From a virus: a stretch of 64,000 nt of DNA. Positions 9,413-43,021 of this stretch are shown here, in pieces. Where the stretch lies: the IMG/VR virus record IMGVR_UViG_3300025108_000022, positions 1 through 64,000 of that record. One strand, written 5' to 3'. Position numbers and translations under genes: made by a program. Numbering within the stretch: position 1 is the first letter of the stretch; each line of letters opens with the position of its first letter. The notes under the pieces were generated by a model that saw nothing but the letters and a program-made list of their open reading frames with translations, searched no databases and was not told the origin of the DNA.

Positions 9413-9414
9413 CG

Positions 9415-10986: not shown

Positions 10987-11107
10987 TCACTGCTCATCAT
11001 CAATGGCTTATCAATGTTGTGAGGCTTAACAGCCTTAACATAAAAAAGAACGGGTTCGGGATGCTTTCATCGGCAGTTATTTGAAACCCGCTTTACATAG
11101 CGCACCC

Positions 11108-20472: not shown

Positions 20473-21183
20473 ATGACGGGGAGGCGTGTTCGCAGGAATT
20501 GTCCTTTTTGTCAAGACGACAGGCGTGATCAATGGGAACAACAAATCCGCATTGGATTGCTTGAACCCGCCGAATTAGATTTGACCCATGACTGGCCCGA
20601 AGGCACTGCACATCGCCACATGAGAAGGCATTCCGGCGAGTATCATAACAATAGCAATACAGAATGTCCTCTATGCACTCATCCCGAAAGAGCCAACATT
20701 GAACACGCTGTCCTTGAGCGTCTTGTCAGTATGGACGACATGGCGACTGAATTGGACATAAGCGAAGAGGCTCTTGCTCAACACATGGAAAATCACACTC
20801 AACCTATCATTCAACGACAGGTCAACATGGAGATTATGCCCGCCGCCATTGACAGCGCACGCACGGCCATGCAACAAAGTGAGCGAAACCTCCAACGACT
20901 TAATGGACTCTTTAACGACCACTTGGATCTGATGCAAGAGGAACGGATGGAGTCGGGGACACTTGACTACAAGGGATTAGACACCGCAGTAAAACTGCAC
21001 CGTGAAGTCCGTGATTCATTGACCGAGATTGGCGAGTGGCTGGAAAAGGCCGAGGCCGTTGGTGGCAACGAACAGGTCAGCGTCTTGACAGTCATACAAG
21101 CACACTTCTCCGAAAAGTCGCCCGAAGAGTGGCGAGTCATGCGTAAGGCGTTAGCCGAAGCGGGGGTGCTTGAAGATGGCTAA
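20473..21183 (+). CDS. Putative DNA-binding protein with two CxxC...HxxxH units plus coiled coil (terminase small subunit candidate)
   Basis: CPFC...HRHMRRH and CPLC...QHMENH. Helical C-terminus. Confidence 0.5.
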   Translation: MTGRRVRRNCPFCQDDRRDQWEQQIRIGLLEPAELDLTHDWPEGTAHRHMRRHSGEYHNNSNTECPLCTHPERANIEHAVLERLVSMDDMATELDISEEALAQHMENHTQPIIQRQVNMEIMPAAIDSARTAMQQSERNLQRLNGLFNDHLDLMQEERMESGTLDYKGLDTAVKLHREVRDSLTEIGEWLEKAEAVGGNEQVSVLTVIQAHFSEKSPEEWRVMRKALAEAGVLEDG

Positions 21184-21586
21184 TGAATGTGCAACGATGA
21201 ACTGTGAAGACAAATCCGACAAAGACGATTTCGCATACTGTGGACAAGGCAATTGTTCCTCATGCGGTGGTGGATGCGGTGATGATAATTGCTCAAAGTG
21301 CAACCGCCGTCCAAAATGGGGTTCTAAGAAGGCATCCATTGACCGAGCGTTCAGCACAGGTTGGTCTATCATCAAAGCAAAGACACCTCGCTTTTGTCCC
21401 ATGTGCATGTCTTCGGAATTAGAACTTGACACGAAAGAGGATAACCTGCGGGAATTGAAAGAGGGAAGAGGTTCATATCGCTTTGATAGAGATCCTGCTT
21501 ATTTGAGGCGTGAAGAACAAAAAATCATGCAAGGCCCGAATTATTGGGGCTATTGCTTGAATTGTGATCATGAGATGGAGGGTTAG
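21176..21586 (+). CDS. Cys-rich protein with internal tag
   Basis: CGQGNCSSCGGGCGDDNCSKC, then RAFSTGWSIIKAK, then CPMC...CLNC. Confidence 0.7.
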   Translation: MANECATMNCEDKSDKDDFAYCGQGNCSSCGGGCGDDNCSKCNRRPKWGSKKASIDRAFSTGWSIIKAKTPRFCPMCMSSELELDTKEDNLRELKEGRGSYRFDRDPAYLRREEQKIMQGPNYWGYCLNCDHEMEG

Positions 21587-21589
21587 TCA

Positions 21590-22012
21590 ATGGATGAAAG
21601 AGGCTATCAAACAATCCCAGCGTTGATGTTGAAGCACACCGAATACGCTGAACTATTGCACGGCAACAGCGACATTTTTACAATGTGTGAAGCACTGCAA
21701 ATGTGCGACGCACTTGAAGAAGTCGTCGGGGTGTGGAAAGAAGGTCTTGACGCATTTGGCCTCACATCCCAAGAGGATTGCTCAAGTGAAGCATTAGGCG
21801 CAATCATGCTCATGCGTATGGGCTTTCACGATCTCAAGAAGGCTTTGCCCGAAGTTCCCCGTGAAGAAGCCGACGAACTTTTGCGAGCCGTAGCAAGGGC
21901 GTTCCTGCCTTTGGCTCAATCATACTCCAAGACACCAATGTTGGCGCAGTGGTATATGGGACTCCCTATACTCGTTGCCGAAACATACAACCGCTTGAGG
22001 GGGCAACGATAA
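21590..22012 (+). CDS. Hypothetical helical protein
   Basis: 140-aa ORF with a GGAGGG SD, coupled to the next gene. Confidence 0.7.
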   Translation: MDERGYQTIPALMLKHTEYAELLHGNSDIFTMCEALQMCDALEEVVGVWKEGLDAFGLTSQEDCSSEALGAIMLMRMGFHDLKKALPEVPREEADELLRAVARAFLPLAQSYSKTPMLAQWYMGLPILVAETYNRLRGQR

Positions 22013-22500
22013 TGCAAGCAATAGGAAGAAACGCATTTTTAGCAGGACTTGAGTTCATCAAAGAAGATCCATGTTGGGACGGCTACGAGCAAGTCGGCAT
22101 GAAAAATAAGGGAGGGCGTGAAGTGCCGAACTGTGTCCCAGCGAGCAAGAAAATACCGGACAGCAAAAAGAAAAGTAAAGTGAAGAAGTCAATTTGCTCT
22201 TGTCCCGAATGCCACATGATGGCTAAGGCACTTCTCACCAAAGAAAGCGACAAACCCTTTCACGGCTACAATCCAAACAAACACAGCCGCAAAGGCGGAT
22301 TGAACGCTAAAGGCCGTGCAAAGGCCAAGCGTGAAGAAGGAGCAAACCTCAAACCACCAGTCACCGAAAAGAACCCGACTGGCAAAAAGAAGGCACGAAA
22401 GAAGTCCTTCTGTGCCCGTATGGGTGGTGTCAAAGGGCCGACCAGCAAAGGCGGCAAAAAGACACCAAAGGGTGCCGCACTTGATAGGTGGAATTGCTAA
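22012..22500 (+). CDS. Basic tagged protein with short phage modules (putative internal head protein)
   Basis: NAFLAGLEFIK tag. PCWDGYEQVGMK..GGREVPNCVP and KGGLNAKGR...RKKSFCARM are modules I recognise from marine phage proteins. Confidence 0.65.
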   Translation: MQAIGRNAFLAGLEFIKEDPCWDGYEQVGMKNKGGREVPNCVPASKKIPDSKKKSKVKKSICSCPECHMMAKALLTKESDKPFHGYNPNKHSRKGGLNAKGRAKAKREEGANLKPPVTEKNPTGKKKARKKSFCARMGGVKGPTSKGGKKTPKGAALDRWNC

Positions 22501-22865
22501 TGAAAGACGGTTGCTGTTGCGGTGCGACAAAATCTAAACCATGCGTTTGCATGAAGAAAGGCATAACAAAATGTTCAAGCAAAGAGCCGAAGTGCCCTTG
22601 CTACAAAGCGAAGGATTTGAAGAAGTCTTTTGATGCTGGTTGGTCTGTGGTGAAAATGAACCCACGCTTGCCAAAGGACGGTGCGCTTGACGGAGTTCTT
22701 TCAAGGAACCCCGACCCACCAACCATGCACGCAGGTATGCCGAGAGATCCCGATTTGTTGGCTCGCTTGAAGCGAATGCACGAAGCAAAAATGAAAGAGG
22801 AAGAGGAAAACACTGTTGACTTTGACCCCGAAACCGCCAAATACGGAATTAACAATTTAGAGTGA
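22500..22865 (+). CDS. Cys-rich protein with internal tag
   Basis: MKDGCCCG...CVC..C..CPC, then KSFDAGWSVVKM. Confidence 0.7.
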   Translation: MKDGCCCGATKSKPCVCMKKGITKCSSKEPKCPCYKAKDLKKSFDAGWSVVKMNPRLPKDGALDGVLSRNPDPPTMHAGMPRDPDLLARLKRMHEAKMKEEEENTVDFDPETAKYGINNLE

Positions 22866-22870
22866 TTATT

Positions 22871-24538
22871 ATGTCAATGGCAAACCCCCGTCGCAATCCC
22901 GGTGAAGAATCCTTGCGGGTTCAAGAGTTCACTGGCGGTTTTCGTGGGCGAGAAATGATGGGGGACTATGATGTCAACCCAAATGAAAACGCTGACGGTT
23001 TGTCCCACATCAGCCAATACGGTGCTGGCTCGCAAGAAACACGCGATCAAATGGATCCGGTGACACGCAAAAAGAAAGCCCTCAAAGAATTGGAGGGCGA
23101 CATCCCACACATTTCAATCCAACCCGAAGAAATGGCTGAAACTCTCAACGACACCCCAATGATGGCTGGTGAAAGCGCACTGCTTGAATCGGGCATGGGT
23201 GTTGATATGGGGCATAAAAACGGCTTGAGCATTTCAGCCGGTGCCAACGCTGGCCCTGTTCAGCGTGAAGGGCCGGGAATGATTTTTGGCCGAAGCAACG
23301 ACGCATTTGAAGACGCTTGGTCGTTGGTGAAGAACGGTGAAGATGAGGACTTACCTTCAAGAGAAGAAATGATTGGGGACATGGAAGACCAAAGAGCCGA
23401 AATGTTGCAGGATCAATACTCCGAGATGGACGAAGAAAAGAAGGGGAGAATGCAAGGATTCATGCTCTCCGACCTGTTTGAACTCAAAGATGTCGGTTTT
23501 GCTGGCACTTCAAAGGGCGGTTTTATGGAAGGCCAACCACCTATTACACCGGACTTGGCACCCGAAGCGGAAAGGCAAGCGATGGAGCAAATGCCTCATC
23601 CACTCGGAGGCTGGCCCGAAGGCTCGTTCAAATGGTTCGCTCCAACACCTATGGGCGAAGAACAAGAGTTCTCCGAAGACTTTCAAGAAAAACTCGCATC
23701 ATCCGACCCTCGGTTCGTTTCCGACATCGTAAAGGCAAAGCGCAAAAAGAAAGGGCGCAAATACGAAGAGGACGAGGAATCCGAAGAGGATGAAAAGAAA
23801 GCAAAAAAGAAAGGCAAGAGGGAACGAAAGCGCAAAATGAAGCGTGGCAAGAAAGAAGCCAGTCGTCAACCCGAAAGCAAATCAAAGCGTCGTGCCGCCG
23901 CCGCTGAACAAAACCTCACACGCCACACCAAGCGTCAAGCATTTGCTCCACGCCGTATGTTTAGTGGCAATCCACGGGCGAAAGACATGCCCCTCCGACT
24001 CCGAGATCCGGTTGCATATCAACGCAAATTAGCGGCTGAAAAGTTCCGTCGTGAAATGGGTTCACTCCCAACCGGACAATCCGCACACGCCGATACAAGA
24101 GGTATCACAGGAAAGGTGCAAACAATCGGTATGGGCGGAAAGGGAACAAAAATGCCTTCACAACCCTCATCCAGTAAAGGCACATCCTTCAAAAAGCCAA
24201 AAAATGCTGAAAGGGACGCCGCTTTGCTCCATGACCCACTGGGCGGGGACGCATTGAAAATGGATATTGAAAAGCGTCTTCAATCAAGGGCAACCGACAT
24301 CAGTGGCTTCACCCGAACCGAACTCCAATCCCTCAAGCGTGATTTGAAGAAACTCCTTGAAGCAGTTCAAAAATTGACAAAATCCACCCCCGAACTTGGT
24401 GCCGAAGCCAAAAGAGGGAATCAAGCAAGTGAGGAAAAAGCAAGTGCCCCGACCGGCCCGACTGAAAATCTAAAAGGTTGGAGATTTGACGACACCTCGC
24501 TTATGCCCGTGGCGTTTGCGGGGGCCAGCAAGCGATGA
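22871..24538 (+). CDS. Disordered protein with acidic and basic blocks and an internal tag (putative internal head/core protein)
   Basis: NDAFEDAWSLVKN, SDIVKAK and a Lys/Arg-rich block. Confidence 0.7.
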   Translation: MSMANPRRNPGEESLRVQEFTGGFRGREMMGDYDVNPNENADGLSHISQYGAGSQETRDQMDPVTRKKKALKELEGDIPHISIQPEEMAETLNDTPMMAGESALLESGMGVDMGHKNGLSISAGANAGPVQREGPGMIFGRSNDAFEDAWSLVKNGEDEDLPSREEMIGDMEDQRAEMLQDQYSEMDEEKKGRMQGFMLSDLFELKDVGFAGTSKGGFMEGQPPITPDLAPEAERQAMEQMPHPLGGWPEGSFKWFAPTPMGEEQEFSEDFQEKLASSDPRFVSDIVKAKRKKKGRKYEEDEESEEDEKKAKKKGKRERKRKMKRGKKEASRQPESKSKRRAAAAEQNLTRHTKRQAFAPRRMFSGNPRAKDMPLRLRDPVAYQRKLAAEKFRREMGSLPTGQSAHADTRGITGKVQTIGMGGKGTKMPSQPSSSKGTSFKKPKNAERDAALLHDPLGGDALKMDIEKRLQSRATDISGFTRTELQSLKRDLKKLLEAVQKLTKSTPELGAEAKRGNQASEEKASAPTGPTENLKGWRFDDTSLMPVAFAGASKR

Positions 24539-26562
24539 GCATTCTCCGCACACCGTGGTCTATTCTTGATCGATGCACCATAATTAACAAAGGTCTTGGG
24601 TTCTTTGACTTTAATGAACTCATCAACGGTTTGCTTGGAATGGTCGGCCCTAACGGCCAGTTAATGGGTTATCCAATGGCTATGGACGACATTACAGGCG
24701 AACATTTGACTGGCGTTGAAGCCGACGCTGTGTATGAAGCAATTTACAACGCCGACCCATCAGATCCGCAACACTTGACAATCCAAGAAGCCGCTTTAAT
24801 CCAAGCGGGGCCACAGGGCGATGAAGACACTTACAAAGCCGCACTGCAAAAAGCAATTGAAATCGGCAGTAAAACCATCAACCACGCCGTTGAAGTGCAA
24901 AATCACCTATGGGGACAAAAGCGTCAAGAAGCCTCCATGACAGGAAAAGGTCTTGACAAAATACCCGACGATTTACCACTGCCCTTCAAGACCGATATGG
25001 GGCGTGCGGTTTTAGATTCGCAGTGGCGTGAAGGGGTTTGGGGGCCACAGAAGAAAGAAACACCGTGGCAATTTGACGCATACGGTGTGCCTAAACTTCG
25101 GGTCGGAAACCGAGATCAAGAAAACTTTCAAAACGAATCATGGAACCGACCATATCACGAAGGACTCAAGTGGGTGCGTGAGCAATCGGGCCACACAGGC
25201 AATACAAGCAAAGTCATTAAACCCGGCAAAGTTCGGCCAAACGGCATTTACATTAACAATGAAGCATACAAGCATAGTATTGCTATGGTGAATGAAATGG
25301 CTCAACAGGCTCAAATGGGCGGCTATGAATTGACACCCGAAATGGTTCAAAACGCATGGTTGAATCACCCAGTGTTGAGCCAACACGCTCCCGAAAACAA
25401 AACCAACATCCAGCACCTCTATGGCATTCGCCGACGAGAAGCCGCACAGTCACCCGACACACCCGGCATTGTCGCCGACGCTGTGCCCGAAGGGCCGGAT
25501 GCCGCACAGCAAGCAATTGAGCAACAGCAAATGCCTCAATCCCCAATGGACGCATACAGCACATGGTTTGAAGATGGGTTCAAGAGCGAGAAGGGCGTGG
25601 ACTTGTATGCAAACTCATTTGCCAACAAGCGTGCTTACCTCCCTAAATTGCACCAATACTTGGGTGACAAATACAACATGGGCGACAATATGCCTTCAAT
25701 TGAAGAATTGGTTGCTCAAGGTTCCGGCAGGGCTGGGGCAGATCGTCTTGTCAGCGGTTTCATCAGTCACATTCAAAGAACCAATCCGGGCATTCAGCCA
25801 AACCAAAACAGGATGCAAGAACCTCAACAACCACAACCTCAACCCGAACCGCAACCTCAACAACCACCTCAACCCACAAACACAGGACAGCCACAGGGGC
25901 CGCAGGGACTTCGTGAAGCGATGGAGCGTCAAAAAGCAAGGAGAGCGCAAGCCCGTGAACCTCAACAACAGCCACAGCCACCAGCACCTCAACCCGAACC
26001 ACAGCCACCAGCACCCCCCGTCGTTCAGCCCCAACCACCAGCACCTCCTGTGCCACGCCAACAACCAGCACCACCAGTTCCTCGTCAGCAACCAGCACCA
26101 CCAGCAACAGTGGGACAAATACCCCCCAACATTCCCCCCGAACAACCTCCTTCTCGCCTAAATGCTTTTCAAGCGCAACCTGCTGGCTCTCAACGGCAGG
26201 ACGGCCCGCCACGATTTAGAGAGGGATGGAGAGGAATGGCTGATAAACTTGCATACCTCACTGGACGAGGTGCCGGACGCATGGGCAACATGTTCGGCAA
26301 AGAGGACATTGAATCCATGCTTGAAACCGTCCAATGTCAAATCGCTTTGCAGGATGATACCATCGCAAAGTCCGTCCCCCACACCCCTATGATTCAATCC
26401 AACGCAACGGATCTCGCCATGATGGCGGGCCAAATACAACGCCCAGTGTCCGATGTCGTCGCCATCCTCAATAGCAGGGGCGACTGGCGTGAGATGTCCA
26501 AATCAATGGACATCCCGTTGGATTGCATACAATTGGTGAAGGTGACTTTCAATGATCAGTAA
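24535..26562 (+). CDS. Hypothetical protein with Pro/Gln-rich region
   Basis: 675 aa. PQ repeats at ~25820-26150. Confidence 0.75.
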   Translation: MSILRTPWSILDRCTIINKGLGFFDFNELINGLLGMVGPNGQLMGYPMAMDDITGEHLTGVEADAVYEAIYNADPSDPQHLTIQEAALIQAGPQGDEDTYKAALQKAIEIGSKTINHAVEVQNHLWGQKRQEASMTGKGLDKIPDDLPLPFKTDMGRAVLDSQWREGVWGPQKKETPWQFDAYGVPKLRVGNRDQENFQNESWNRPYHEGLKWVREQSGHTGNTSKVIKPGKVRPNGIYINNEAYKHSIAMVNEMAQQAQMGGYELTPEMVQNAWLNHPVLSQHAPENKTNIQHLYGIRRREAAQSPDTPGIVADAVPEGPDAAQQAIEQQQMPQSPMDAYSTWFEDGFKSEKGVDLYANSFANKRAYLPKLHQYLGDKYNMGDNMPSIEELVAQGSGRAGADRLVSGFISHIQRTNPGIQPNQNRMQEPQQPQPQPEPQPQQPPQPTNTGQPQGPQGLREAMERQKARRAQAREPQQQPQPPAPQPEPQPPAPPVVQPQPPAPPVPRQQPAPPVPRQQPAPPATVGQIPPNIPPEQPPSRLNAFQAQPAGSQRQDGPPRFREGWRGMADKLAYLTGRGAGRMGNMFGKEDIESMLETVQCQIALQDDTIAKSVPHTPMIQSNATDLAMMAGQIQRPVSDVVAILNSRGDWREMSKSMDIPLDCIQLVKVTFNDQ

Positions 26563-27580
26563 GCGTGAGTTCAGTGCAGACAGAATGGCAAGAGCGAGAA
26601 TGCTTGCTGAAAGAGAGGCTTTTGAGAAAGGGGCAAAATGGGATGCCGCAAAAAGGGGAATGATGAATCCTATTCAAAGTGCAAAAGGGGTGGCGAACCG
26701 CCTCGGCGATGCCAACGAAAGACGAAAAGCAAGAGGCGAGTTCAACCAATTAGGAGCAACGGCTCAAGCATCATTCGGTGGAGATGCCGATGCTTATGCA
26801 AATCAAATCAGTGATAAACGCAGGAAAGGGAGAGAAACTGAACAATTGGACGCTATGAACGCTAAGGTCGGAAATCCACTACCAGCCGCCGCCGCACCAG
26901 CGGCAGGGGCACCAGCACCAGCGGCAGGGGCACCAGCACCAGCGGCAGGAGCCGCACCGGCAGGAGGCGCACCAGCACCAGCGGCAGGAGCCGCACCAGC
27001 AGGGGGCGCACCAGCAGGAGGCGCACCGGCAGGGGGCGCACCGGCAGGTGGAGCAGGAGCAGGAGCCGCACCAGCAGGTGGAGCAGGAGCAGGTGGAGCA
27101 GGAGCAGGTGGAGCAGGAGCCGCACCAGCACCAGCGGCAGGAGCCGCACCGGCAGGAGGCGCACCAGCGGCGGCACCAGCGGCGGCACCAGCGGCGGCAC
27201 CAGCGGCGGCACCAGCAAACAACATGCAACAAATGGCACAGAACATGGCGTTCGGTGCTGACGCTCAAGCAATTCAAGCCGGAAAAGGCGGCGAAAAGCA
27301 ATCGTGGATGAAAGACCGTTCATTTGGTGGAAAGGTTGCCGATGTATTGTCAATGGGATTAACAAGCGGTATGGGGTCAACAGGAATCATGGCTCGCAAC
27401 CAAGCCAACAAAAAGAACGAGGCGCAAACACAACGCTACAATCAAGCACAGAATAACATGCAACAACGCTTCATGGGCAACCAAGTGGCGAACCCAATGT
27501 TCGGCAAAGCCCAAAAATCCGCAGATCGTATTCACCGTTCAATTGAACATATTATGCTACGCAAACAAATGAGAAGGTGA
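26552..27580 (+). CDS. Ala/Gly/Pro-repeat protein
   Basis: 342 aa with a central (APAAG/APAGG)n region. Confidence 0.75.
   Translation: MISKREFSADRMARARMLAEREAFEKGAKWDAAKRGMMNPIQSAKGVANRLGDANERRKARGEFNQLGATAQASFGGDADAYANQISDKRRKGRETEQLDAMNAKVGNPLPAAAAPAAGAPAPAAGAPAPAAGAAPAGGAPAPAAGAAPAGGAPAGGAPAGGAPAGGAGAGAAPAGGAGAGGAGAGGAGAAPAPAAGAAPAGGAPAAAPAAAPAAAPAAAPANNMQQMAQNMAFGADAQAIQAGKGGEKQSWMKDRSFGGKVADVLSMGLTSGMGSTGIMARNQANKKNEAQTQRYNQAQNNMQQRFMGNQVANPMFGKAQKSADRIHRSIEHIMLRKQMRR
26880..27216 (+). repeat. Coding tandem repeats (GCACCAGCGGCAGG-type)
   Basis: Degenerate short tandem units encoding Ala/Gly/Pro. Confidence 0.9.
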
Positions 27581-27586
27581 TTTCAA

Positions 27587-29839
27587 ATGGATAGATACGA
27601 CGACATGCTACTCAAAGCCCGTGCTGAAATGCTGGGCAAAGAACCACTACGCAAAGCACCACCGCATGATGCACTTTTCTCGCATGTGTGGAACCATGTT
27701 GTCAAAGCACCCGCTGACGATCCATACGGTTTAATGCAAGGCTACCAAAACGAAAGAAACCAACAACGACAACAACAAGTGCAAGAGCGCACACAGTCTT
27801 CACCAGCACCAGCCGATCCGTTCGGTCAAATGAACGAGGGTGCATCGCTGGATGGGCCAACACAAGGCATGGGGGCTAATTTCCGTCAAGGGCGACAAGA
27901 AACCCGTGATCCAAACAAGACGGGAATGTTTGGCCGAGCCAAGCAAGGCATTGGCAATTTTATGAACAGATTCAAACGAACACCCTCCCAACAAACCGAA
28001 AGCACTCCACCTTCACTTCAAGAGGAACCAGCACCGGCTGACGAGCGTTCATTTATGGACACACCAAGAGCCGAACTCCCTCCGTCGTTTCGATCATGGA
28101 ACCGATATGGGAGCCGTGAAGAAGAGTTCCCAACAAGGGACTGGGTTCGCAATAACATGGATGCTGGCGGAAACGATTTAGCCGAATGGGAAAGAATGAA
28201 TGCCCTTCGGGAACAGCGAGAAGCCGAAACCCAACAAACTCAACAAGCCGAGCAAGGCAACGACCTCCGAGCCGCTACAAGGGACAAAATGACCCCATCA
28301 GCATGGCCGTCGCCTATGCAAGAAGCACAGGAGAGGAAACCTGCTGTTGACGCTGGCATGGACGCTATGCGTGAGCCAGTGGACAACGACTTCTATAACC
28401 GCTTTGCTGGTGTGGAGGAACAACCGATGAGGCAACCCCAATCCGAAGCCCCAGCACCAGTGGAGGAACAACGAGAGTTCAGTGATCCGTTCGGTCAAAT
28501 GAACGGATTAGAGGAACGAGAAGAACTGCCTCCCGACTTCAATACTGAAATTGAACCTCAACAAATGCTAATGACTGACCCTCCGTATATAGGGGGACAG
28601 GAGGAAATGACCGAAGAACGGCAAAATGAGGATGCACTTTCTTACAAGGAGAGGGCATCTAAGAATGCGGAGGAAAGAAACCCGGAAGCCCTTCAACGGT
28701 TGGAGGAATCGCAAATGCTAATGACTGACCCTCCGTATGTGGGGGAACAGGAAGACGAAAACCCCGATTGGATGAAGGGCATGGACGAAGAGGAATACAC
28801 CGATTGGGCACGGTCAATGAGAAATGAATATGGCGGGCAGGAGGAATCACCCCGTGCTACGACACGAACTGGGACAGAAATACCACGAAAGGCGTTGCCA
28901 GCACCAAAGGTGGCACCCGAAAACCGACAATTGCCCGAATCAACCGGAGAAAACAAACCCGGTGAAATGGCTGGCATCCCGTCCAAAGCACGCACAGGAT
29001 TCAATGAAGTCAACAACCGAAGCGAAGGCGACAAGGCCAAGCAAGATCCAAGAGCAAGAGGAAAAAATAACCGCTTGATGGAAACAAAGCGCAGGGAAAA
29101 ATTGCGAAACGAAAAATACAATGTCATGCCGGAGGAACAGCAAGAAAAAGCACCTCCAAAGAAGGCCGCACCAAAGAAGGCTAAGAAAAGCCCAGCCGCA
29201 AAGGCTGTGAAGAATACCGACAAAGGCAAAGAAGTCGCCGAAGCAAACAAGAAAGGCGCACTTGAAGGCACCGAAGAAATGCGAGAAGAAGCACCAAAGA
29301 AAGGTGCGGCAAAGGTGAAAGCAACAACCTCCAAAAAAGCACCTAAAATGGAAATTGGTGAAGGGGCTGAAAGGATTGAAGCCAAGCCAAAGAAGGGTGC
29401 GGCGAAGGTGAAGGCAACAACCTCCAAAGCCAAGCCAAAGGAAGGCTCGGCTCTCGCAAGGGTGAACTCACTTGACGAAAAGCGAAAGGCAGGGGAAAAC
29501 CCCAGCAAACCGTTCGCCAACAAAGCAAAGCCAGCACGCAAGCGCACCAAGAATCCAAAGAAAGCCGCTATTGAAGGACTGGGTGAAGCGGCGGCTCGTT
29601 CAAGAACACGACAGGCCGCAAAAGCAAAAAAAAACGAGCCAAGTGAAGAAAGCGCACCCGAAAAAGAATACGGTTTGAGTATCAGCGGCAGTGCATCCGA
29701 AAGCGACATCAGCGAAATTATGGAGGCCGCAAGAAACGGCAACAAGTCGGCTCAATCGGCGGTGTATAACAACGCCGCAACCTTAGAGGATATATTCAAA
29801 ATACCTGTTGACGACATACGAGAAGCGAGTGGCCGGTGA
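27587..29839 (+). CDS. Large disordered protein with acidic centre and Lys/Ala-rich C-terminal half
   Basis: DMLLKA and HDALFSHVWNHVVKA. Internal duplications DPFGQMN x2, QMLMTDPPY x2 and KKGAAKVKATTSK x2. Confidence 0.75.
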   Translation: MDRYDDMLLKARAEMLGKEPLRKAPPHDALFSHVWNHVVKAPADDPYGLMQGYQNERNQQRQQQVQERTQSSPAPADPFGQMNEGASLDGPTQGMGANFRQGRQETRDPNKTGMFGRAKQGIGNFMNRFKRTPSQQTESTPPSLQEEPAPADERSFMDTPRAELPPSFRSWNRYGSREEEFPTRDWVRNNMDAGGNDLAEWERMNALREQREAETQQTQQAEQGNDLRAATRDKMTPSAWPSPMQEAQERKPAVDAGMDAMREPVDNDFYNRFAGVEEQPMRQPQSEAPAPVEEQREFSDPFGQMNGLEEREELPPDFNTEIEPQQMLMTDPPYIGGQEEMTEERQNEDALSYKERASKNAEERNPEALQRLEESQMLMTDPPYVGEQEDENPDWMKGMDEEEYTDWARSMRNEYGGQEESPRATTRTGTEIPRKALPAPKVAPENRQLPESTGENKPGEMAGIPSKARTGFNEVNNRSEGDKAKQDPRARGKNNRLMETKRREKLRNEKYNVMPEEQQEKAPPKKAAPKKAKKSPAAKAVKNTDKGKEVAEANKKGALEGTEEMREEAPKKGAAKVKATTSKKAPKMEIGEGAERIEAKPKKGAAKVKATTSKAKPKEGSALARVNSLDEKRKAGENPSKPFANKAKPARKRTKNPKKAAIEGLGEAAARSRTRQAAKAKKNEPSEESAPEKEYGLSISGSASESDISEIMEAARNGNKSAQSAVYNNAATLEDIFKIPVDDIREASGR

Positions 29840-29844
29840 ACGCC

Positions 29845-34485: not shown

Positions 34486-34534
34486 TTCTCCATAACCTTC
34501 ATTTAATGGGATAGCATGGGATGGTTTGGTTAAG

Positions 34535-34909: not shown

Positions 34910-34914
34910 TCACA

Positions 34915-35505: not shown

Positions 35506-35506
35506 T

Positions 35507-35857
35507 ATGAGCGACAATGCAGGTGAAGCAACCGCCGATTTGTTGAAAGAAATGGTCGGAGAACTCCGTCTATTGCGACAAAGGGTGGAACAATTAGAAA
35601 CCGAAAACGCAACGCTCTCCAAAGCAGTGGACGACCCCGAAACACTGATGAAAAAAGCAGGATGGCTCAAAGCCGTCACTCCGTTATCCGCCGAAGTCTA
35701 TGATCCTCTTAACCGTGAGGCTGGCGACGCACCAGCGTTTGTCAGTGGATTCGGAACTGAAATGCTCAACAAGGGAATGGATGAATTGAAAGAATGGCAA
35801 CAGATGGAAAACTCCATGCCGAGCCACACCACCCCTTCTTCAATAAAATACAGGTGA
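35507..35857 (+). CDS. Coiled-coil head-module protein
   Basis: LRLLRQRVEQLETENATLSKA. Confidence 0.7.
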   Translation: MSDNAGEATADLLKEMVGELRLLRQRVEQLETENATLSKAVDDPETLMKKAGWLKAVTPLSAEVYDPLNREAGDAPAFVSGFGTEMLNKGMDELKEWQQMENSMPSHTTPSSIKYR

Positions 35858-35862
35858 TTACA

Positions 35863-36951
35863 ATGCAACCACGATGGCACGAACCAAAAAATACAGCCGA
35901 AGGCGAACTACTACAACATGTGCTACAATTAGAGCAAATCGTCAAAATGCGAAAGAACATGAACTGCATGGGTTGTAAATCCGACGATTGCCCGTCTTGT
36001 TCTAAGAAAGCAAGCAAAGCAGGTCAAATTAAAGTCACGGACGCTGACAGACATAACAACAAGGTTTTCGCTGACATCATGGGTGACGGTGATGAAGACG
36101 CCGCACACAAGAACTATGAAGAAGCCAGTGAAATGGATCGCAAAGGTCAGTTCAAACCAAACCGTGGTGATGAAAAGAAACCGACCTTGAAAGGACGAGG
36201 CGGCATGTTATCCAATTTTGATTTCAGCAAGAATACCGGCAAGGGAGAGCCTATCGGTGCAGGAGGTCAAAGAATGACTCAAGAGGAAGCGATGGGTGGT
36301 GGCAAAAACGACCGCATGGGTCAGCCATATACCGTCGATCCGAAAGTTAGGAGTATGCACAGCAGAAAGCGATTTGATGATGGGTCAATAAGCCATACAG
36401 GAAGAGGTGGGCGTGGCTATACAAACGCTGGTAGTAAAATCACACGAACACCACGACCCGGTGTCGGACAACGCTCGGATTTCAGCACAGAAGGTGATGG
36501 GTCAAGTGTGCTTGAGCCTAAACCCGAATGGATGGTGGACAAAGGCGACATCACCTCACAGTTCCTTGCATCAAAAGGCGTTATCGTCAAGTATGAGCAA
36601 GAAGGCTCCGTTGAAAACGGCGTCCCTCAATTTATGGATCACAGCGGCGGAACACCGATTGAAGCAAGACCATATCAAACGAATGGGACATACCCGGACT
36701 TTAATGAGGTTGCACCCAAAAAATCATCCATCAGCGAAGTGGCTAAAATGCCAGCATACGCAAAGACGGGGTATGATGAAAAAGGCAGTTCAGTCCACAT
36801 GCACTTAACAAACGGAGGCGACCGCAAAGGCGGCAATTGGAACATCGCTCCAATTGAAGAAAGCCTCACGCAATTGAGAAAGGGATATGGAAACCCCGGA
36901 ATCATTGAGGAAATTGCCTCCCTTATGGAAAATGTCGCAAAGAACCTCTAA
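35863..36951 (+). CDS. Disordered head-module protein
   Basis: ATG 35863 follows GGTGA. CMGC..CPSC and several hydrophobic-x-K motifs. Confidence 0.7.
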   Translation: MQPRWHEPKNTAEGELLQHVLQLEQIVKMRKNMNCMGCKSDDCPSCSKKASKAGQIKVTDADRHNNKVFADIMGDGDEDAAHKNYEEASEMDRKGQFKPNRGDEKKPTLKGRGGMLSNFDFSKNTGKGEPIGAGGQRMTQEEAMGGGKNDRMGQPYTVDPKVRSMHSRKRFDDGSISHTGRGGRGYTNAGSKITRTPRPGVGQRSDFSTEGDGSSVLEPKPEWMVDKGDITSQFLASKGVIVKYEQEGSVENGVPQFMDHSGGTPIEARPYQTNGTYPDFNEVAPKKSSISEVAKMPAYAKTGYDEKGSSVHMHLTNGGDRKGGNWNIAPIEESLTQLRKGYGNPGIIEEIASLMENVAKNL

Positions 36952-36965
36952 TTGGAGGTTTAGGC

Positions 36966-39900
36966 ATGGATAGGCAAGAGTTCTTGAGAATACGCACCGA
37001 CACACTTCTGTCGTTGGTGTCAAACCATGAGGTCAGTCACGACCTGTATTTGAAAGCCTTCTCCGACTACTACGGGGATGAAACCTCAATTGAAAAAGAA
37101 GATCAGGCTATTCTCGGTATGCTTCCTATGACAGCACCACCTCAATATCACATGGAAAACATGGATAACCCGTCACCAGTCACCACACTCAACCTCCCCA
37201 GTGGTTATGAAGACTACATCGCAGGACAACGCAGGTTCGTAAAGACATACGCCCAAGACTGGCCTATGGCGAGTGAAAAGAACCGATTCGGAAAAAGACA
37301 CCCGTTGTCATACGATTTGCCAACCATGCCTTTACTTCACGGTGCGGAATGGGGCGAACCGGCTTTTGTCGATCACCTTTTGCATTTGATTGAAGAGGAT
37401 GAAGAAGGTCAATCGGTTATCAAATCCATGAAAGACGCTGAACGCATGGGCGTTATTCCCAAAGAATACGCAGGAATCGTCGGTCGCCCGACTGAAAGCC
37501 TTCACGACCTTTACATGACCGACCGCAGAACCCGTTTTGCTTATGCTGACGATGATGAATACATTGATGCAAAAAAGGAACAATGGGGTGGACGCAACAG
37601 TCGTCTTGGTTTGCTTTCATATTTATTCGGCCTTGAATGGCAATCCTCCGACCAGCGAGAGGCTTTTATGGACACTCTCAAAAAATTAGGCGGAACCGAA
37701 GGGCCAGCAGATCCTAATGCTCGCAAAGTTATGAATGACTTCACTGCCTCATCCGGCATTTCATGGGATAGGGCAAAACGCAATTGGTTTGAGCGTATTA
37801 TCCCCATAGCCCGTTGGTGGGAACGCCCATCGGACAGACACGGGCCAGTGTCAGCGGAGGACATACCCTCCGGGTTAAATCACATGAAATCGCCGTGGGT
37901 GAAGAATGCTGACATGGTTGACCCAAATGACAACATGATTGAACCGTCAGCAAATCACCATTGGTGGTTGCCGTTTCAACATTGGGGAGGGGTTGGGCGT
38001 GATGCACAGTCGCTTCAAACCATGTTGAGAGATTCATACCCAGCCGCTATGCAGGGATGGCTTGGTGATGAAATGATTGGTTTTCTCGCTGACCGACAGC
38101 ACCCATTGAATGACAGCGAAGACGCATACCACAGCAGTGGTTCATCATTTTTCCCTCAAACAGCAAATCACCCGATGATGGCTGGACACCCGCACCGTTC
38201 GGCAGTATCAACGGGGTGGGCGGCTGGTTCTGATCATCCGTATGTGCGTTCATTCCCACGCCGACGCTCTCTTTGGTCGTCTGTGTCAAACGGCGCACAT
38301 TTGCACCCGTCGGAAATAGAAGGCGGAGGCAAACGCATGATTATCCCATCGTATGCTTTTGCTACAAACCCGAACGGATTAGGACGAATCATTTCTTCTC
38401 ACACAGATCAAGGACAACCAAGAATTGGCCCTACACGGGAAAGGCACCCCGGTGACGAAGAATACCACACATTTCATAACGACCATTATGAAAAAAGTGA
38501 TGTTTTAATCGGCCAAATGATGCAAAAAATGGCTATGGAATTGATGGCTGAACACGGCCCTGCACTACTGCATGGGACAAAACCAAACGACATCACAGGA
38601 AACACGCTCGCCCGTGGAAACCTGCAACAATTGGCTAAAGCGGCCAACATGCAATTGATGAGAGGTGGAGGTTTGGATAAAATGACAACCTTCGCCCCAA
38701 TGGTTGCAGGGGGAGGACTTGCCACCCAAGAAGTGCCTCTTGGGCCAATCCATCCTCAATCACACGCTACAATTCCGCCAGTGTATTTGACAGGCGATAA
38801 AGACGCTTGGGGACATAAAATGCCAGCGACCCTCGCATTTAATTGGGACAGGGAAAACAATAGCACACGGTTTGAGGTAAAGGACAAGCCGTTTGAAACT
38901 CTTCAACGCACCGTCCATGAAGGCCATGTGGGAATGGTTCACCCTACACATGCAGATCACGCATTGAAACCAAAGGTCAATTCAATTCCGGCTCTTGAAG
39001 TCACTGATGAAATGGGCGCACCTCCTATTCTAAATGGCGACATTTTCAAAGCCGACGATTATGAACCAACGGGAGTGTTTGAGAAAGTCATTGTCCCAGC
39101 ACATACTGTTTATGATTTTAGTTCAATAGACGACTTGAGAGGATTCACTGGTGATTGGGTCGTTCAAAAGAAACCCGAAGGAAAGCGTGTATTCATCCAA
39201 AAGAAAGGCGGCCATATCAAAGCCAGCAACGGAAAGGGCAGGGATGTGTCTTTGCCGAAGAAGGTCAAAGAAGGCATACGCAAACAAGAAGGAGATTGCA
39301 CTTTTGACGGTGTTTTGAAAGACGGCAAGTTCCGAGCCATCGATCTGTTGGTGCATAAGGGCGACGACATTCACATGGAAAAATTAGAAGACAGGCTCAC
39401 CATCCTTCGCACACTTTACGAAACTGACGAAGGCGTTTCATTCCCAATGCCAGCCGACTGTAAGTTCAGTGACCGTGAAGGTTTGCGGTCAAACATGGAC
39501 GCACTTGGCGGAGAACTATGGCTTCGTGACTCCACCTCCACCTTTATGAAAGGAAAAGAAGCACACCATAAATGGGTTCACTACGCACCGGACGGAGATG
39601 GTGTCAAGAAAATGTATGGGCCGTTCCCATCGGTTTCTATTCGCAACAACCGAATGGTGCTTGAATACCCCGGACACCCTGCACCGTTGGTGGTGAAGGG
39701 TGAGTGGGATGGGGAAGGTTTTGACTATCAAGGATTTGAGAAAGGTTCACGGCCACTATTGATTCACGCTGAAAGGCAAATGAATGTGTGGGGGCCAGTC
39801 GGTGTTCACTTGCTGAAATATGAAATTAGTGAAATTACACCATACCCACCATTCATCAAGACCGCTTCTTCAACGCTTTTCAAAGCCTCCTTATTGGACA

Positions 39901-40496
39901 CCGATGGAAAGGCGAATCCGGTTGAAGAGATACTGACTCACGCCCGACAACACTTGACGGGTGGTGACGAAGCACTGACCCCAGCCGAATTGAAGGCTAA
40001 TGTCAAAGGTTTGACCGATGAAATGCTCGATCAGTTCGGTGCCGAATATGGTTTAGAAGCCACTGAAAACGGAAAGTGGACTGTCAATCAAGCGATTGAC
40101 GACGATATGATGGGGGAAAAGGCCATCAGTTCACCAATAGCAAGGATAAGCGGCAGTGTTCAAGGTGGTGGCTGGGCTGGTATGATGGACGCTTATACGG
40201 CTCCAAGAGGGCCAACCGAATTACTTGACGACGAGGCAACGCCGTTTTTTGACCCAATGCAACCGGATGATGCCCAATTAGAGGGAATGCCACAGCACAT
40301 CAAGATCCAAACAACAGACGGGGAGGGGGAAGAGATTGATGGGGATTTAACCCTTGAAGGCAACACTGCGACCCTGCGTTTCCCTCAAAAAACAGAACAA
40401 GAAGTCAAGGATGAGCAAGAAATTAAGGTGCCTATGGAGGATTCGGAGGGGGACGGAATGATGCCTCCCGAACCCCCTGCCGCCCCTATCGCTTAA
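36966..40496 (+). CDS. Large head-module protein containing an ATP-dependent DNA ligase-like nucleotidyltransferase domain
   Basis: WVVQKKPEGKRVFI (motif I-like), TFDGVL (III), FRAIDLL (IIIa), LEDRLTIL, LWLRDSTS (IV) and KWV at ~39050-39620. Confidence 0.7.
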   Translation: MDRQEFLRIRTDTLLSLVSNHEVSHDLYLKAFSDYYGDETSIEKEDQAILGMLPMTAPPQYHMENMDNPSPVTTLNLPSGYEDYIAGQRRFVKTYAQDWPMASEKNRFGKRHPLSYDLPTMPLLHGAEWGEPAFVDHLLHLIEEDEEGQSVIKSMKDAERMGVIPKEYAGIVGRPTESLHDLYMTDRRTRFAYADDDEYIDAKKEQWGGRNSRLGLLSYLFGLEWQSSDQREAFMDTLKKLGGTEGPADPNARKVMNDFTASSGISWDRAKRNWFERIIPIARWWERPSDRHGPVSAEDIPSGLNHMKSPWVKNADMVDPNDNMIEPSANHHWWLPFQHWGGVGRDAQSLQTMLRDSYPAAMQGWLGDEMIGFLADRQHPLNDSEDAYHSSGSSFFPQTANHPMMAGHPHRSAVSTGWAAGSDHPYVRSFPRRRSLWSSVSNGAHLHPSEIEGGGKRMIIPSYAFATNPNGLGRIISSHTDQGQPRIGPTRERHPGDEEYHTFHNDHYEKSDVLIGQMMQKMAMELMAEHGPALLHGTKPNDITGNTLARGNLQQLAKAANMQLMRGGGLDKMTTFAPMVAGGGLATQEVPLGPIHPQSHATIPPVYLTGDKDAWGHKMPATLAFNWDRENNSTRFEVKDKPFETLQRTVHEGHVGMVHPTHADHALKPKVNSIPALEVTDEMGAPPILNGDIFKADDYEPTGVFEKVIVPAHTVYDFSSIDDLRGFTGDWVVQKKPEGKRVFIQKKGGHIKASNGKGRDVSLPKKVKEGIRKQEGDCTFDGVLKDGKFRAIDLLVHKGDDIHMEKLEDRLTILRTLYETDEGVSFPMPADCKFSDREGLRSNMDALGGELWLRDSTSTFMKGKEAHHKWVHYAPDGDGVKKMYGPFPSVSIRNNRMVLEYPGHPAPLVVKGEWDGEGFDYQGFEKGSRPLLIHAERQMNVWGPVGVHLLKYEISEITPYPPFIKTASSTLFKASLLDTDGKANPVEEILTHARQHLTGGDEALTPAELKANVKGLTDEMLDQFGAEYGLEATENGKWTVNQAIDDDMMGEKAISSPIARISGSVQGGGWAGMMDAYTAPRGPTELLDDEATPFFDPMQPDDAQLEGMPQHIKIQTTDGEGEEIDGDLTLEGNTATLRFPQKTEQEVKDEQEIKVPMEDSEGDGMMPPEPPAAPIA

Positions 40497-40523
40497 ATAC
40501 CATGACATAAAATGGGTGAGATA

Positions 40524-41840
40524 ATGGCGACCACTGCAACATGGACAGCGACCGGAGCAGACTTCATTTTGAAGTCAGCAACCGGAAACGATCTTGTTAT
40601 TGCTGGCTACGCTTCTGTTGACATGGTTGATAAGCAGGGAGATAGAATCCCTGTGTCGGCTCTCAAGAAGGCATTCAACGGCTTTATGGCCGACCCAGCA
40701 TACCGAAATGTGCAATTAGCGCACAGTGGTATTCAAGTGGGAGAAGTTCTTTCAAATTATACTGACAGTGAAGGCCGAGTATGGAAATCCACTGTTGATG
40801 ATCACGGACTGTTTGTCGTGTGCAAGATCCGCAACGACATTGAAAAGGCCCGTGAAGTCCAAAAGCAAGTTCGCAGTGGCGAACTGCGAGCATTCTCCAT
40901 TGGGGGCCAAGCGTTGTTCCGTGTTAGCAAGACTACACCGGAACACGGCACCCACCGTGAAATCACGGACATGGAATTGCATGAAATTACTTTGTGCAAA
41001 AAAGGAATAAACCCCGAAAGCACATACACCCTACTGAAAATGGACGATGATAACATGAGCAACGAAGCAGAAACCCTAACCGAAATCCGTGACGCTTTGT
41101 CACGAATCAACAAGCAAATTGAACAACCAACATACGAAGAACCAGTATATGCTGATGATTCGTTGGCTAAGGAAGAAGAAGCCGCAGTGGCTTACATTGA
41201 CTCTCTTGAAAAGTTCGCACACCAGCAAGGCGTGAACCTTGACGGCCTACGAGATCACTTTGGACTCGGCAAGGCTTACATGGTCGGCGTTGATGGAGAG
41301 CATGGATTCGGACACCGAGGACAAGGCGACCTTTACGGAAGTGGAGAAGACGCAACCCTCGCTACTGCACCAAAACTCCCAAATGCAAAATCCAACAAGT
41401 ATGTCATTAAGCAAAATGGCGTGCCGAACATGAAAATGAATGCACCGTCCGGTGGCCGAAATGTCATCAAAGGCGGATTGGATCTTTCCCCTGCCTCCCT
41501 TGAGCGTGGCTACGGTGCTTACTCCGCAATTCGTGATGAAGAAGCGGTCAAAGCACTTGTTGAGAAAGAATGGCACGACCGCTATGAAGCGGAAACCCAA
41601 TCAGCCCTCAACATGCAAAAGGCCACTGATTACTCCGGCCAAATTGAGATGTTGAAGCAAGAAATCGCATCCCTACGCAACGAAACCTCCACCATAGCGA
41701 AATCCGCAGTGCCAGTTCCGGCACAGTCGGACATTCGTGTTCCGACCCATGAAGAGTTCATGGCTCTTGGAGATGGCTTGGACGGATGGCGTGCGCTTGA
41801 AGAACTCGGACAGCGTGCCCTTCATGGAGCAAACTTTTGA
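40524..41840 (+). CDS. Prohead protease (HK97-type) fused to a scaffold-like C-terminal region
   Basis: IAGYASVDMVDKQGD, His in QLAHS and Ser in AFSIGG, ELHEITL...GINP. Helical tail. GGTGA SD. Confidence 0.92.
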   Translation: MATTATWTATGADFILKSATGNDLVIAGYASVDMVDKQGDRIPVSALKKAFNGFMADPAYRNVQLAHSGIQVGEVLSNYTDSEGRVWKSTVDDHGLFVVCKIRNDIEKAREVQKQVRSGELRAFSIGGQALFRVSKTTPEHGTHREITDMELHEITLCKKGINPESTYTLLKMDDDNMSNEAETLTEIRDALSRINKQIEQPTYEEPVYADDSLAKEEEAAVAYIDSLEKFAHQQGVNLDGLRDHFGLGKAYMVGVDGEHGFGHRGQGDLYGSGEDATLATAPKLPNAKSNKYVIKQNGVPNMKMNAPSGGRNVIKGGLDLSPASLERGYGAYSAIRDEEAVKALVEKEWHDRYEAETQSALNMQKATDYSGQIEMLKQEIASLRNETSTIAKSAVPVPAQSDIRVPTHEEFMALGDGLDGWRALEELGQRALHGANF

Positions 41841-41854
41841 AAGGAGATGATTAG

Positions 41855-43021
41855 ATGAGTGGAAGCACAGGATATATTCGCACAATTGAAGACATGGAAC
41901 GACTCTATTACGGAGCCGGAACAGGACAAAACGCATGGGCATACGCTGGAACCGACCTTTTGAAGTCGGACTCCCCGCTAATGTCCTCAACCGGCGGAAC
42001 ATACCAAGCGATCTTCGGTCGTAAAGTATGGTCGCAATTGAACCAAGAGTTCAACGCATTCTCCATCCTCCCTAAGAAACCGTGGGAGAAGAGTGGATGG
42101 CGTGTCACCACAGCAAAGCCGGACTTCGGAAAAGGCGGCGGTGTGGCTGAAAACGCAACCCTACCGGAAACCACCAAGCCGACCTTTGAGCATGTTTCAA
42201 CCAAGCCAAAGACGGTTGCACACTCCTTTGACCTCTCCGAAACAGCCATGTTCTTGGCTGACAAGGATGATGGACTGGGCGATGCACGGGCTGTTATCAA
42301 AATGGAAATGGCAAAGCACCACACAGAACACATCAACAAGATGCTTCTTCAAGATGTCAACACTGTTGCTGGAAACGACTTTGAGTCCCTTGACAGAATC
42401 ACTTCTTCGTCTTTCGTTGAAAGCACAGGCTTCGGCGACATTGACGCAATCAGCAATCACAACATTTACAACCTCACCCGAAACGGTGCTGGGGCTGGAT
42501 CTCAACAGTGGTATGACGCTCAAGTGGACGCAGGTGCAAACAACGGAACTGACCGTGCTTTGACCCTCAACATTCTTGACGGAATGTTCCGACAGATTTG
42601 GGAAGCAGGAGGTCAGCCAAAGGTTATCCTCACTGGCTACGACACTCTTGAAACCATTCAGCAATTGCTCCAACCTCAACAACGATTCGTTGAGATGAAG
42701 CGTGTCGTCCCCGGCGTCAATGGCGTTAAGGGTGTTCCGGGCATTCAAGGTGGATTCATGGTCGCAACCTACAACGGTGTCCCAATCATCCCATCTAAGG
42801 ATGTTCACAAGGGCACTGGCGGTTCTTCTCGCCTTTACTTCTTGGACACAGACTACTTGTGGTTCACCACTGCAAAGCCAACACTCTATCACGAATCGGG
42901 AATTGAAACCGGAGATCCTTTCGGTATCAACAGGCTCGGACAAATGGGAATGTTTCACACAATGGGTGAACTCATCGCATCTTTCTTCAAGGCAAGCGGA
43001 AAAATCCGTGACCTATCGTGA
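41855..43021 (+). CDS. Major capsid protein (HK97 fold expected)
   Basis: 388 aa directly after the protease. GGVAENATLPET, ATYNGVPIIPS and LYFLDTDYL motifs. Confidence 0.88.
   Translation: MSGSTGYIRTIEDMERLYYGAGTGQNAWAYAGTDLLKSDSPLMSSTGGTYQAIFGRKVWSQLNQEFNAFSILPKKPWEKSGWRVTTAKPDFGKGGGVAENATLPETTKPTFEHVSTKPKTVAHSFDLSETAMFLADKDDGLGDARAVIKMEMAKHHTEHINKMLLQDVNTVAGNDFESLDRITSSSFVESTGFGDIDAISNHNIYNLTRNGAGAGSQQWYDAQVDAGANNGTDRALTLNILDGMFRQIWEAGGQPKVILTGYDTLETIQQLLQPQQRFVEMKRVVPGVNGVKGVPGIQGGFMVATYNGVPIIPSKDVHKGTGGSSRLYFLDTDYLWFTTAKPTLYHESGIETGDPFGINRLGQMGMFHTMGELIASFFKASGKIRDLS

Follow-up and report, generated by a model that had tools for sequence, protein, structure and literature searches.

Hydrophobic-x-Lys sites in the head-core and tagged cargo proteins of a putative magrovirus: a candidate substrate rule for its prohead protease

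A short peptide common to otherwise unrelated proteins is found in 16 copies in a 64-kb stretch of viral DNA (IMG/VR record IMGVR_UViG_3300025108_000022, positions 1 to 64,000, referred to below as the window), and in 64 tagged open reading frames (ORFs) of 16 related loci. The question raised by this locus is what such a tag has to do with the maturation of the virus head. The + strand of the window is a tailed-virus segment in which a cargo array (2270-16205, + strand), whose products start M-x-AFDxA[FW]xLLK, is followed by a head module and then by tail genes. The head module includes a gene for an S78 prohead protease with a long C-terminal extension (40512-41840, + strand), directly 3' of which lies the gene for the major capsid protein (MCP; 41855-43021, + strand), a protein of the HK97 fold. 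Each tag ends in [LIVM]-x-K, the same motif that is enriched in the scaffold part of the protease and present at a conserved site of the MCP. The original prediction held that a Lys-specific prohead protease links the cargo array to head maturation. The support found for this idea is statistical and comparative, and consists of the enrichment of the motif in head-core proteins, its conservation, and its avoidance in the cargo. It is considered likely from the sequences that hydrophobic-x-Lys is the cut site of the S78 protease and that three classes of protein are adapted to it.

The motif in head-core, tail and cargo proteins

The motif [ILVFM]-x-K-[ASGMN] was fixed a priori and its occurrences were counted against composition-preserving shuffles; the shorter form, consisting of a hydrophobic residue, any residue and Lys, is written h-x-K below. 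Ten head-core proteins, including TerL (29836-31281, + strand) and the portal protein (32677-34485, + strand), were found to contain 54 motifs, with 20.2 expected (z = 7.9). When TerL and portal were left out, the other eight held 49, compared with 16.6 in local shuffles over 20 amino acids (aa), and none of 1000 shuffles reached the observed count. TerL and portal by themselves contained 5 motifs (4.5 expected), the tail proteins 27 (25.6 expected) and the cargo array 12 (10.8 expected). The comparison of head proteins with tail and other proteins and with shuffled sequences, which had been proposed with the original prediction, was strongly positive in the head core only.

The signal was specific for both residue and position. 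No enrichment was observed when the Lys of the motif was replaced by Glu, Arg, Asp or Gln. Around the Lys residues of the head core, hydrophobic residues were in excess at K-2 (z = +6.8) and small residues at K+1 (z = +3.2), with no signal at the other positions (+2, +/-3 and +/-4) and nothing comparable around Arg, Glu or Gln. With the hydrophobic positions frozen, the excess persisted both when only polar residues (z = +5.8) and when only charged residues (z = +4.7) were shuffled. It was absent in the five other reading frames (z of 2.2 or less), a control by which a motif at the DNA level was rejected.

Individually, the protease/scaffold protein held 9 motifs (2.1 expected), followed by a 472-aa protein to which no family could be assigned (31278-32696, + strand; 8 vs 2.5, p = 0.002), a small helical protein (34526-34909, + strand; 4 vs 0.7), a small coiled-coil-like protein (35507-35857, + strand; 3 vs 0.7), a 385-aa protein (35794-36951, + strand; 7 vs 2.4, p = 0.01) and the MCP (6 vs 1.8). 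The enrichment was modest in a 1176-aa protein (36966-40496, + strand; 11 vs 4.7). In homologues with less than 55% identity, a 2.2-2.8-fold motif density was kept in the small proteins and the protease, with ratios of about 2.5 for ORF 34526 and 2.2-2.8 for ORF 35507, compared with 1.0 in the portal. Over the pooled head core, the conservation of motif Lys residues was 0.62, against 0.47 for other Lys residues (p = 0.002).

The cargo displayed the opposite behavior, which the original prediction had not foreseen. The bodies of the eleven tagged array proteins of the window, with their tags removed, contained 12 h-x-K where 20.5-21.4 were expected. ORFs 11081 and 14133, which belong to the array and lack an N-terminal tag, contained 3 (10.6 expected), and the bodies of five tagged head-module proteins (21170-29839) contained 11 (20.6 expected), though about 10% of their residues are Lys. 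For replication, 16 thermosome-anchored loci (L152-L167) were used, with 64 tagged ORFs, all on the strand of the array and up to 11 per locus; 38 bodies were kept that were dissimilar to the window cargo and to each other (filter of 40% identity over 50 aa), this filter being the sole control for kinship. These 38 bodies contained 21 h-x-K against 59.4 expected (z = -5.8; expected range across shuffles 59-67) and 2 four-residue motifs against 17.1. The depletion was limited to K-2 (z = -5.9) and became stronger when only polar (z = -6.7) or only charged residues (z = -7.1) were shuffled; h-x-R, h-x-E, h-x-D and h-x-Q were at or above expectation. The same pair of residues, P3 and P1 in protease terms, would thus appear to be selected for in the head core and against in the cargo, and to be neutral in tail, portal and terminase proteins.

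The pattern in the head was also found in the halovirus HVTV-1 (KC117377), where h-x-K was enriched in the head module (z = +5.0), with z = -1.2 in the tail and 103 occurrences against 102 expected in non-structural ORFs. HVTV-1 gp113-118, head proteins that are non-homologous to those of the window, contained 43 h-x-K (24.8 expected). No tag of the AFDxAW type was detected in the 91 kb of HVTV-1 examined, so the tag is not common to that halovirus.

The protease, its candidate sites and the tags

The product of the protease gene matched PF04586 over residues 23-177 with 37.9 bits (cut-off 21), the S78 domain comprising approximately residues 20-162, and it also matched a PHROG head maturation protease (E = 1e-19). 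BLASTP against HK97 gp4 gave an E-value of 5e-4 and aligned Ser129 with Ser114. Among homologues, Ser129 (FSIGG) is invariant, as is His71 in an H-x4-VG context. A Foldseek match to T4 gp21 (5jbl), whose assemblin-like fold also occurs in herpesvirus proteases, was obtained with a probability of 0.99, an E-value of 1e-2 and a template modelling (TM) score of 0.44 from a query model with a mean predicted local distance difference test score (pLDDT) of 61; sequence searches of the PDB with the MCP, the protease and a protease profile returned no homologue. By these matches the gene product is an HK97-family S78 prohead protease with a scaffold-like C-terminal part. It contains 20 h-x-K against about 7 expected, and this ratio (about 2.7-fold, the highest density observed) holds in 61 homologues. 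In 39 non-redundant homologues of 62-100% identity, all nine motif Lys residues and K300 are invariant, compared with 7 of the 18 other Lys residues.

The candidate sites of this protein, in which the slash marks the putative cut, were distributed as follows. FILK21/S (40563-40574, + strand) lies near the N-terminus, where G-x-D-F-[IL]-[LI]-K is kept after a variable N-terminus, and resembles the MCP site. TLLK176/M (41028-41039, + strand), invariant in the 39 homologues, stands where the protease domain gives way to a variable acidic linker. GLGK254/A, YVIK300/Q, NVIK320/G, NMQK370/A and TIAK397/S (41262-41702, + strand) are in the scaffold part, and in these the Lys is invariant and the flanks vary. 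In the AlphaFold2 (AF2) model, a low-pLDDT stretch at residues 147-184 holds K176 and a further disordered stretch spans residues 256-323; K176, K254, K300 and K320 fell within disordered stretches or at their edges, and K370 and K397 at the ends of helices.

The MCP was identified by a match to PHROG 24667 (E = 6e-46) and by an AF2 model (pLDDT 84.6, predicted TM score 0.83) with an N-arm, an E-loop, a P domain with spine helix and an A domain. In VIA comparisons, residues 48-388 gave Z values of 19.8 to 7f38, 17.9 to 6j3q and 16.6 to HK97 (3qpr); overall, Z was 16-20 to the cyanophage, Mic1, HK97 and T5 capsids and 15-16.5 to encapsulin shells. The candidate maturation cut is DLLK37/S (41954-41965, + strand), and its Lys codon does begin at 41963, as had been predicted. 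The entire MCP N-terminus is conserved in close relatives, which are uninformative about the site, and 123 representatives of the family, taken from a full HMMER search, were used instead. In these, the K37 column held Lys in 96 and Arg in 15, and most sequences without Lys there have it at the next position. P3 was Leu, Ile, Val, Phe or Met in 100 representatives, P1' was Ala, Ser or Thr in 88, P2' was Asp in 95 and P4' was Pro in 85. The consensus is accordingly h-x-K/[AST]-D-x-P, preceded by hypervariable residues 21-34, with an N-terminal part of 16-108 aa. The AF2 model has a helix at residues 11-19, and a disordered stretch at 23-42 that includes K37, with the HK97 fold beginning at about residue 48. 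Since VIA pairs MCP residue 48 with HK97 residue 119, simple extrapolation puts HK97 Ser104 at about residue 33, and on this basis the K37 site would be positionally equivalent to the HK97 cut. In HVTV-1, the MCP of which is 31% identical, the aligned site reads GMSK/ADNLL and follows 67 extra N-terminal residues rich in h-x-K. Maturation of the MCP at Ser38, with a predicted N-terminus SDSPLM..., is on balance favored.

The pattern D-h-h-K/[AS]-D recurs in the MCP, at the protease N-terminus, in ORF 35507 and at a junction of the 1176-aa protein. As a separate observation, a longer element, W-x2-3-G-x-D-h-h-K, is common to the N-termini of the protease (ATWTATGADFILK/S, 40545-40574) and the MCP (NAWAYAGTDLLK/S, 41933-41965), and a shorter form occurs in ORF 35507 (ATADLLK/E) and the 1176-aa protein (GDIFK/ADD). 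At the latter site (DIFK695/A, 39039-39050, + strand), GD[IL]xK/[AS]DDYEPTGVF is conserved and the part upstream is variable; HLLK951/Y (39807-39818, + strand) and TLFK973/A (39873-39884, + strand), a conserved junction site, bracket a linker of hypervariable length. These three junction sites of the 1176-aa protein are conserved and its remaining sites are not. Both sites of ORF 35507 (ADLLK14/E and TLSK39/AVDDP) are conserved, and ORF 34526 has a conserved, tag-like N-terminal leader, GFLDFGIIAK/MDP. All the short forms quoted in the original prediction for these proteins were located in the sequence; conservation divides them, as it is lacking at the internal sites of the MCP and, in the 1176-aa protein, at K153, K558 and K572. 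Several of the listed forms are probably due to chance.

Five full tags had been reported outside the array, and all were found on the + strand in the coding frame, although the numbers first attached to them were ORF starts and not tag positions. AFSTGWSIIK/A (21347-21376) occupies residues 60-69 of ORF 21170-21586, 3' of a Cys-rich leader, and SFDAGWSVVK/M (22626-22655) is likewise internal and 3' of a Cys-rich leader in ORF 22488-22865, where it is kept despite indels on both sides. AFLAGLEFIK/E (22033-22062) is near the N-terminus (residues 8-17) of a very basic protein (22012-22500). AFEDAWSLVK/N (23303-23332) follows a 147-aa leader in ORF 22862-24538 and is kept in 21 homologous ORFs; an internal translation start before this tag was rejected, as the Met is not conserved in relatives. 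The fifth, ALFSHVWNHVVK/A (27671-27706), belongs to ORF 27587-29839, and in relatives a canonical AFDxAWxLxK stands there, followed by a hypervariable stretch. All five lie where a variable leader joins the body, which may itself be conserved or variable.

A position-specific scoring matrix (PSSM) trained on the ten N-terminal array tags only, with a threshold of 13.1 (95% null maximum), placed the tags at 23303 (22.5) and 22626 (16.8) above the null maximum; the tag at 21347 was borderline and those at 22033 and 27671 were weak. When homologous positions were compared in TerL-anchored loci from IMG/VR, canonical tags were found in relatives at the 27587 position (DTAFSMAWDLTK and QAFDAAWELLK) and at the 22012 position (GAFLVGWEFVK), and because relatives carry canonical tags at homologous positions, the five tags are taken as genuine and conserved. 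A loose regular expression for the tag matched 16 times in the window, each time in a coding frame of the + strand, and the five other frames gave no match. It had also been stated that the tail genes carry no full tag, and no tail protein reached the PSSM threshold; the best match there, AAFDAGGGKLK in the tape-measure protein (51318-51347), scored 11.0 and is probably due to chance. After the 64 tags of loci L152-L167, Pro is found at P2' in 29, and K/M-P is the most frequent ending.

The Cys-rich leaders of ORFs 21170-21586 and 22488-22865 resemble zinc ribbons or metallothionein, and relatives gain or lose the whole Cys-rich module ahead of the internal tags. The tagged proteins 22012-22500, 22862-24538 and 27587-29839 contain 9-19% Lys, with KKxK/AKKA runs like those of histone H1 tails; these basic proteins are candidates for DNA-binding internal head proteins. 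Between them, at 24535-27580, two long low-complexity proteins are encoded, one with a PQ-rich middle and the other with AAGAPAP runs.

Regarding the affiliation of the virus, its portal and protease, like its MCP, match HVTV-1, and a thermosome-like ORF is present at 9415-10986 on the - strand. A halovirus-like MCP, portal and protease together with a virus-encoded thermosome constitute the gene pattern published for the magroviruses of Marine Group II archaea (PMC5434244). By this gene pattern, the virus was assigned to the thermosome group of the magroviruses of Poseidoniales. No mention of tags or cleavage motifs was found in PMC5434244 or in the other searchable papers on magroviruses and haloviruses. 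In contrast to the portal, protease and MCP, TerL gave no BLASTP match (E < 0.01) to the HVTV-1 TerL; the terminase may differ in origin from the remaining head module. At 1380-2273, 5' of the array, an ORF with GPRDGIQN near its start is, by eye, a candidate HMG-CoA-lyase-type (DRE-TIM) enzyme.

Proposed mechanism and rival explanations

In the mechanism considered most likely, the S78 protease would cut after a Lys with a hydrophobic residue two places before it, preferably when Ala, Ser, Met or Gly occupies P1', often with Asp or Glu and Pro thereafter. The first of the three classes would comprise the scaffold part of the protease, the short propeptide of the MCP and five further head-core proteins (two small and helical, three larger), all packed with sites at which cleavage would lead to degradation or trimming and to exit from the head. 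The second would be the cargo, in which an amphipathic helix of 10-12 residues (AFDxA[FW]xLLK) would dock inside the prohead and end in a site, the bodies having been purged of h-x-K so as to survive the protease; the five very basic head-module proteins (21170-29839) would belong to this class. Tail proteins, portal and terminase, as a third class, would never face the enzyme as substrates and would therefore be neutral. What is new is the extent to which the Lys rule would shape the proteome, its link to tag-based cargo, the archaeal host and the cargo avoidance. The chances are judged to be even for the broader proposal that h-x-Lys is a proteome-wide sorting code, in which density marks disposable scaffold and avoidance together with a tag marks delivered proteins. 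If so, a set of exchangeable enzymes and very basic DNA-binding proteins, ten or more in number, would be injected by each virion into a Poseidoniales cell, and the contrast between enrichment and avoidance could serve to predict packaged proteins wherever an uncultured virus encodes an HK97-type protease. Few archaeal viruses of the surface ocean are as abundant as the magroviruses, none of which has been cultured; if the rule holds, the sequence alone would give the specificity of the protease, the likely mature N-terminus of the MCP and the division between scaffold and protected cargo. The mirror-image statistics would then be a cheap general test for the location of a protein inside the prohead, in any virus with an HK97-type protease.

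Several observations weigh against cleavage by this rule. BLASTP aligned no His of the protease with HK97 His65, which we take to form the catalytic pair of gp4 together with Ser114. Motif Lys residues of the 1176-aa protein are conserved to practically the same extent as other Lys residues (0.39 vs 0.37), and those of the MCP are less conserved than others. Five further motif sites of the MCP (K93, K149, K162, K319 and K379) lie inside the fold, are not conserved and are probably uncut; since they cannot all be cut, the excess in the MCP is only partly explained. The P1' residue after the 64 tags is loose (Met in 24, Ala and Glu in 10 each, Gly in 5, and others), and one array tag is C-terminal (14119-14148); cleavage at that tag would take off four residues but not the tag itself, so docking can be separated from cutting. 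Among distant relatives, three loci (L095, L096 and L083) gave z values of +2.3 to +3.0, with h-x-E also raised in the first two, and the signal upstream of the MCP was weak or absent in L088 (z = +1.0), L092 (+1.2) and a Methanofastidiosa virus (+0.3), as well as weak or null in L091; these upstream sets contain unrelated genes, so this partial replication is not decisive. Two other distant MCPs, when used as queries for related loci, yielded none. Finally, the viruses are uncultured, and cleavage at the motif, maturation of the MCP to SDSPLM... and docking of cargo through the tag are all inferred from the genes. Cuts after Lys would be invisible in ordinary tryptic proteomics, because trypsin itself cuts after Lys.

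A role in docking only, in which the tag and the short h-x-K forms bind the scaffold, the capsid interior or the protease body with no cut after Lys, would agree with the C-terminal tag and the loose P1', and encapsulins, whose shells are near this MCP (Z 15-16.5), load their cargo through short peptides without a protease. It is nevertheless regarded as rather improbable, given that a signature confined to P3 and P1, with P2 left free, is what protease subsites typically impose and a docking helix does not, that the motif is enriched in proteins expected to leave the head and purged from those expected to stay, that sites are found in disordered linkers, and that the type enzyme HK97 gp4 cuts this very motif (PMC10275583). 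A Lys-directed process of another kind, such as a host trypsin-like protease or a Lys-modifying enzyme (a cargo protein, for example) reading the motif, has a precedent in phage 80alpha, the capsid maturation of which is cited in PMC8569155 as using a host protease. The S78 protease is, however, encoded directly 5' of the MCP, its own scaffold is the densest in the motif (about 2.7-fold), HK97 gp4 has this specificity and nothing points to modification, which makes such a process very unlikely; HK97-style Lys crosslinking and Lys modification were also considered, with nothing in support of either. Hardly any credence is given to an artefact, by which helical, Lys-rich head proteins would yield h-x-K through amphipathic periodicity or local composition. 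Head-core proteins are indeed helix-rich and tail proteins strand-rich, and h-x-E, h-x-D and h-x-R were somewhat above expectation in several sets; yet only K-2 and only Lys were affected, and not +2 or +/-3 and 4, the signal persisted in local 20-aa and hydrophobic-fixed shuffles, other frames had no excess, and the sign was reversed in the cargo of the same genomes.

A larger, though still minor, share of belief is given to a partial version of the mechanism, in which the scaffold is degraded and the cargo trimmed but the MCP stays uncut, K37 being kept for a structural role in the N-arm. Close relatives show high conservation throughout the MCP N-terminus, and Y19 is 97% conserved in the family, so that residues 8-20 have a role of their own; in addition, many phages that possess a separate scaffold do not cut their MCP. 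Against this version, the linker at residues 21-34 is hypervariable in both sequence and length, the site is predicted to be disordered, D-h-h-K/[AS]-D is common to the sites of the MCP, the protease and the 1176-aa junction, and the extra residues before the aligned HVTV-1 site are rich in h-x-K.

Comparison with known systems

The original prediction stated that some large phages process the MCP at a Lys-Ser bond; the phage concerned is HK97, a small phage, in which the cut of the capsid protein gp5 was measured at K103/S104 within an unstructured stretch (PMC10275583). In the HK97 genome this site reads TFNK/SLG, which fits h-x-K-[small], and the delta domain contains 6 h-x-K (3.0 expected). 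Phage phi12 has Lys or Arg at P1 (PMC8569155). Lys specificity with a hydrophobic P3 is thus the behavior of the type enzyme of the family. The protease of this virus and HK97 gp4 belong to the same Pfam family with weak but significant similarity, in both viruses the protease gene is directly 5' of an HK97-fold MCP, and the HK97 cut, like the K37 site in the model, is located in an unstructured segment immediately ahead of the N-arm. HK97 differs in that the delta domain of its MCP (103 residues) serves as the scaffold, with neither a cargo array nor a common tag, whereas this virus fuses a scaffold-like part to the protease, has a predicted MCP propeptide of 37 residues and belongs to an archaeal host.

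Propeptides of head proteins that contain several protease motifs and are cut repeatedly are known from the phiKZ-like giants, such as SPN3US (gp245) (PMC10052503); there the motif ends in Glu, the propeptides are 111-254 aa long, and the phages have T=27 capsids and infect bacteria. In phage P1, an N-terminal signal of DarB sends large anti-restriction enzymes into the head, and DarA and the MCP are trimmed by the prohead protease Pro (PMC9024508, PMC12810830). The phage P1 MCP is cut after Glu120, and no short tag is common to many of its proteins. Encapsulins are similar in that an HK97-fold shell, structurally near this MCP, receives unrelated enzymes by means of short peptides, but these systems have no protease, DNA or scaffold, and their peptides are usually C-terminal and of another sequence.

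The closest functional parallel, together with the SPN3US propeptides, is offered by T4, in which a short N-terminal peptide on unrelated proteins (IPI-III and Alt) ends in a protease site (PMC12991175, PMC9024508). The gp21 motif is I/L-x-E, also with a hydrophobic P3 (PMC12991175). The scaffold and core proteins of T4 (gp22, gp67 and gp68) are rich in sites and are degraded, and its MCP sheds an N-terminal piece, events that in this virus are deduced from the genes. T4 differs in its P1 residue (Glu, against a predicted Lys in this virus), in its protease subfamily and in the domain of its host, and, unlike in T4, tags in this virus are also internal, after leaders of 28-147 aa, and in one case C-terminal. 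To our knowledge, avoidance of sites in the cargo has not been reported for T4. If the proposed rule holds, the T4 logic of a targeting sequence coupled to a protease would be extended to a virus of archaea in which another residue occupies P1.

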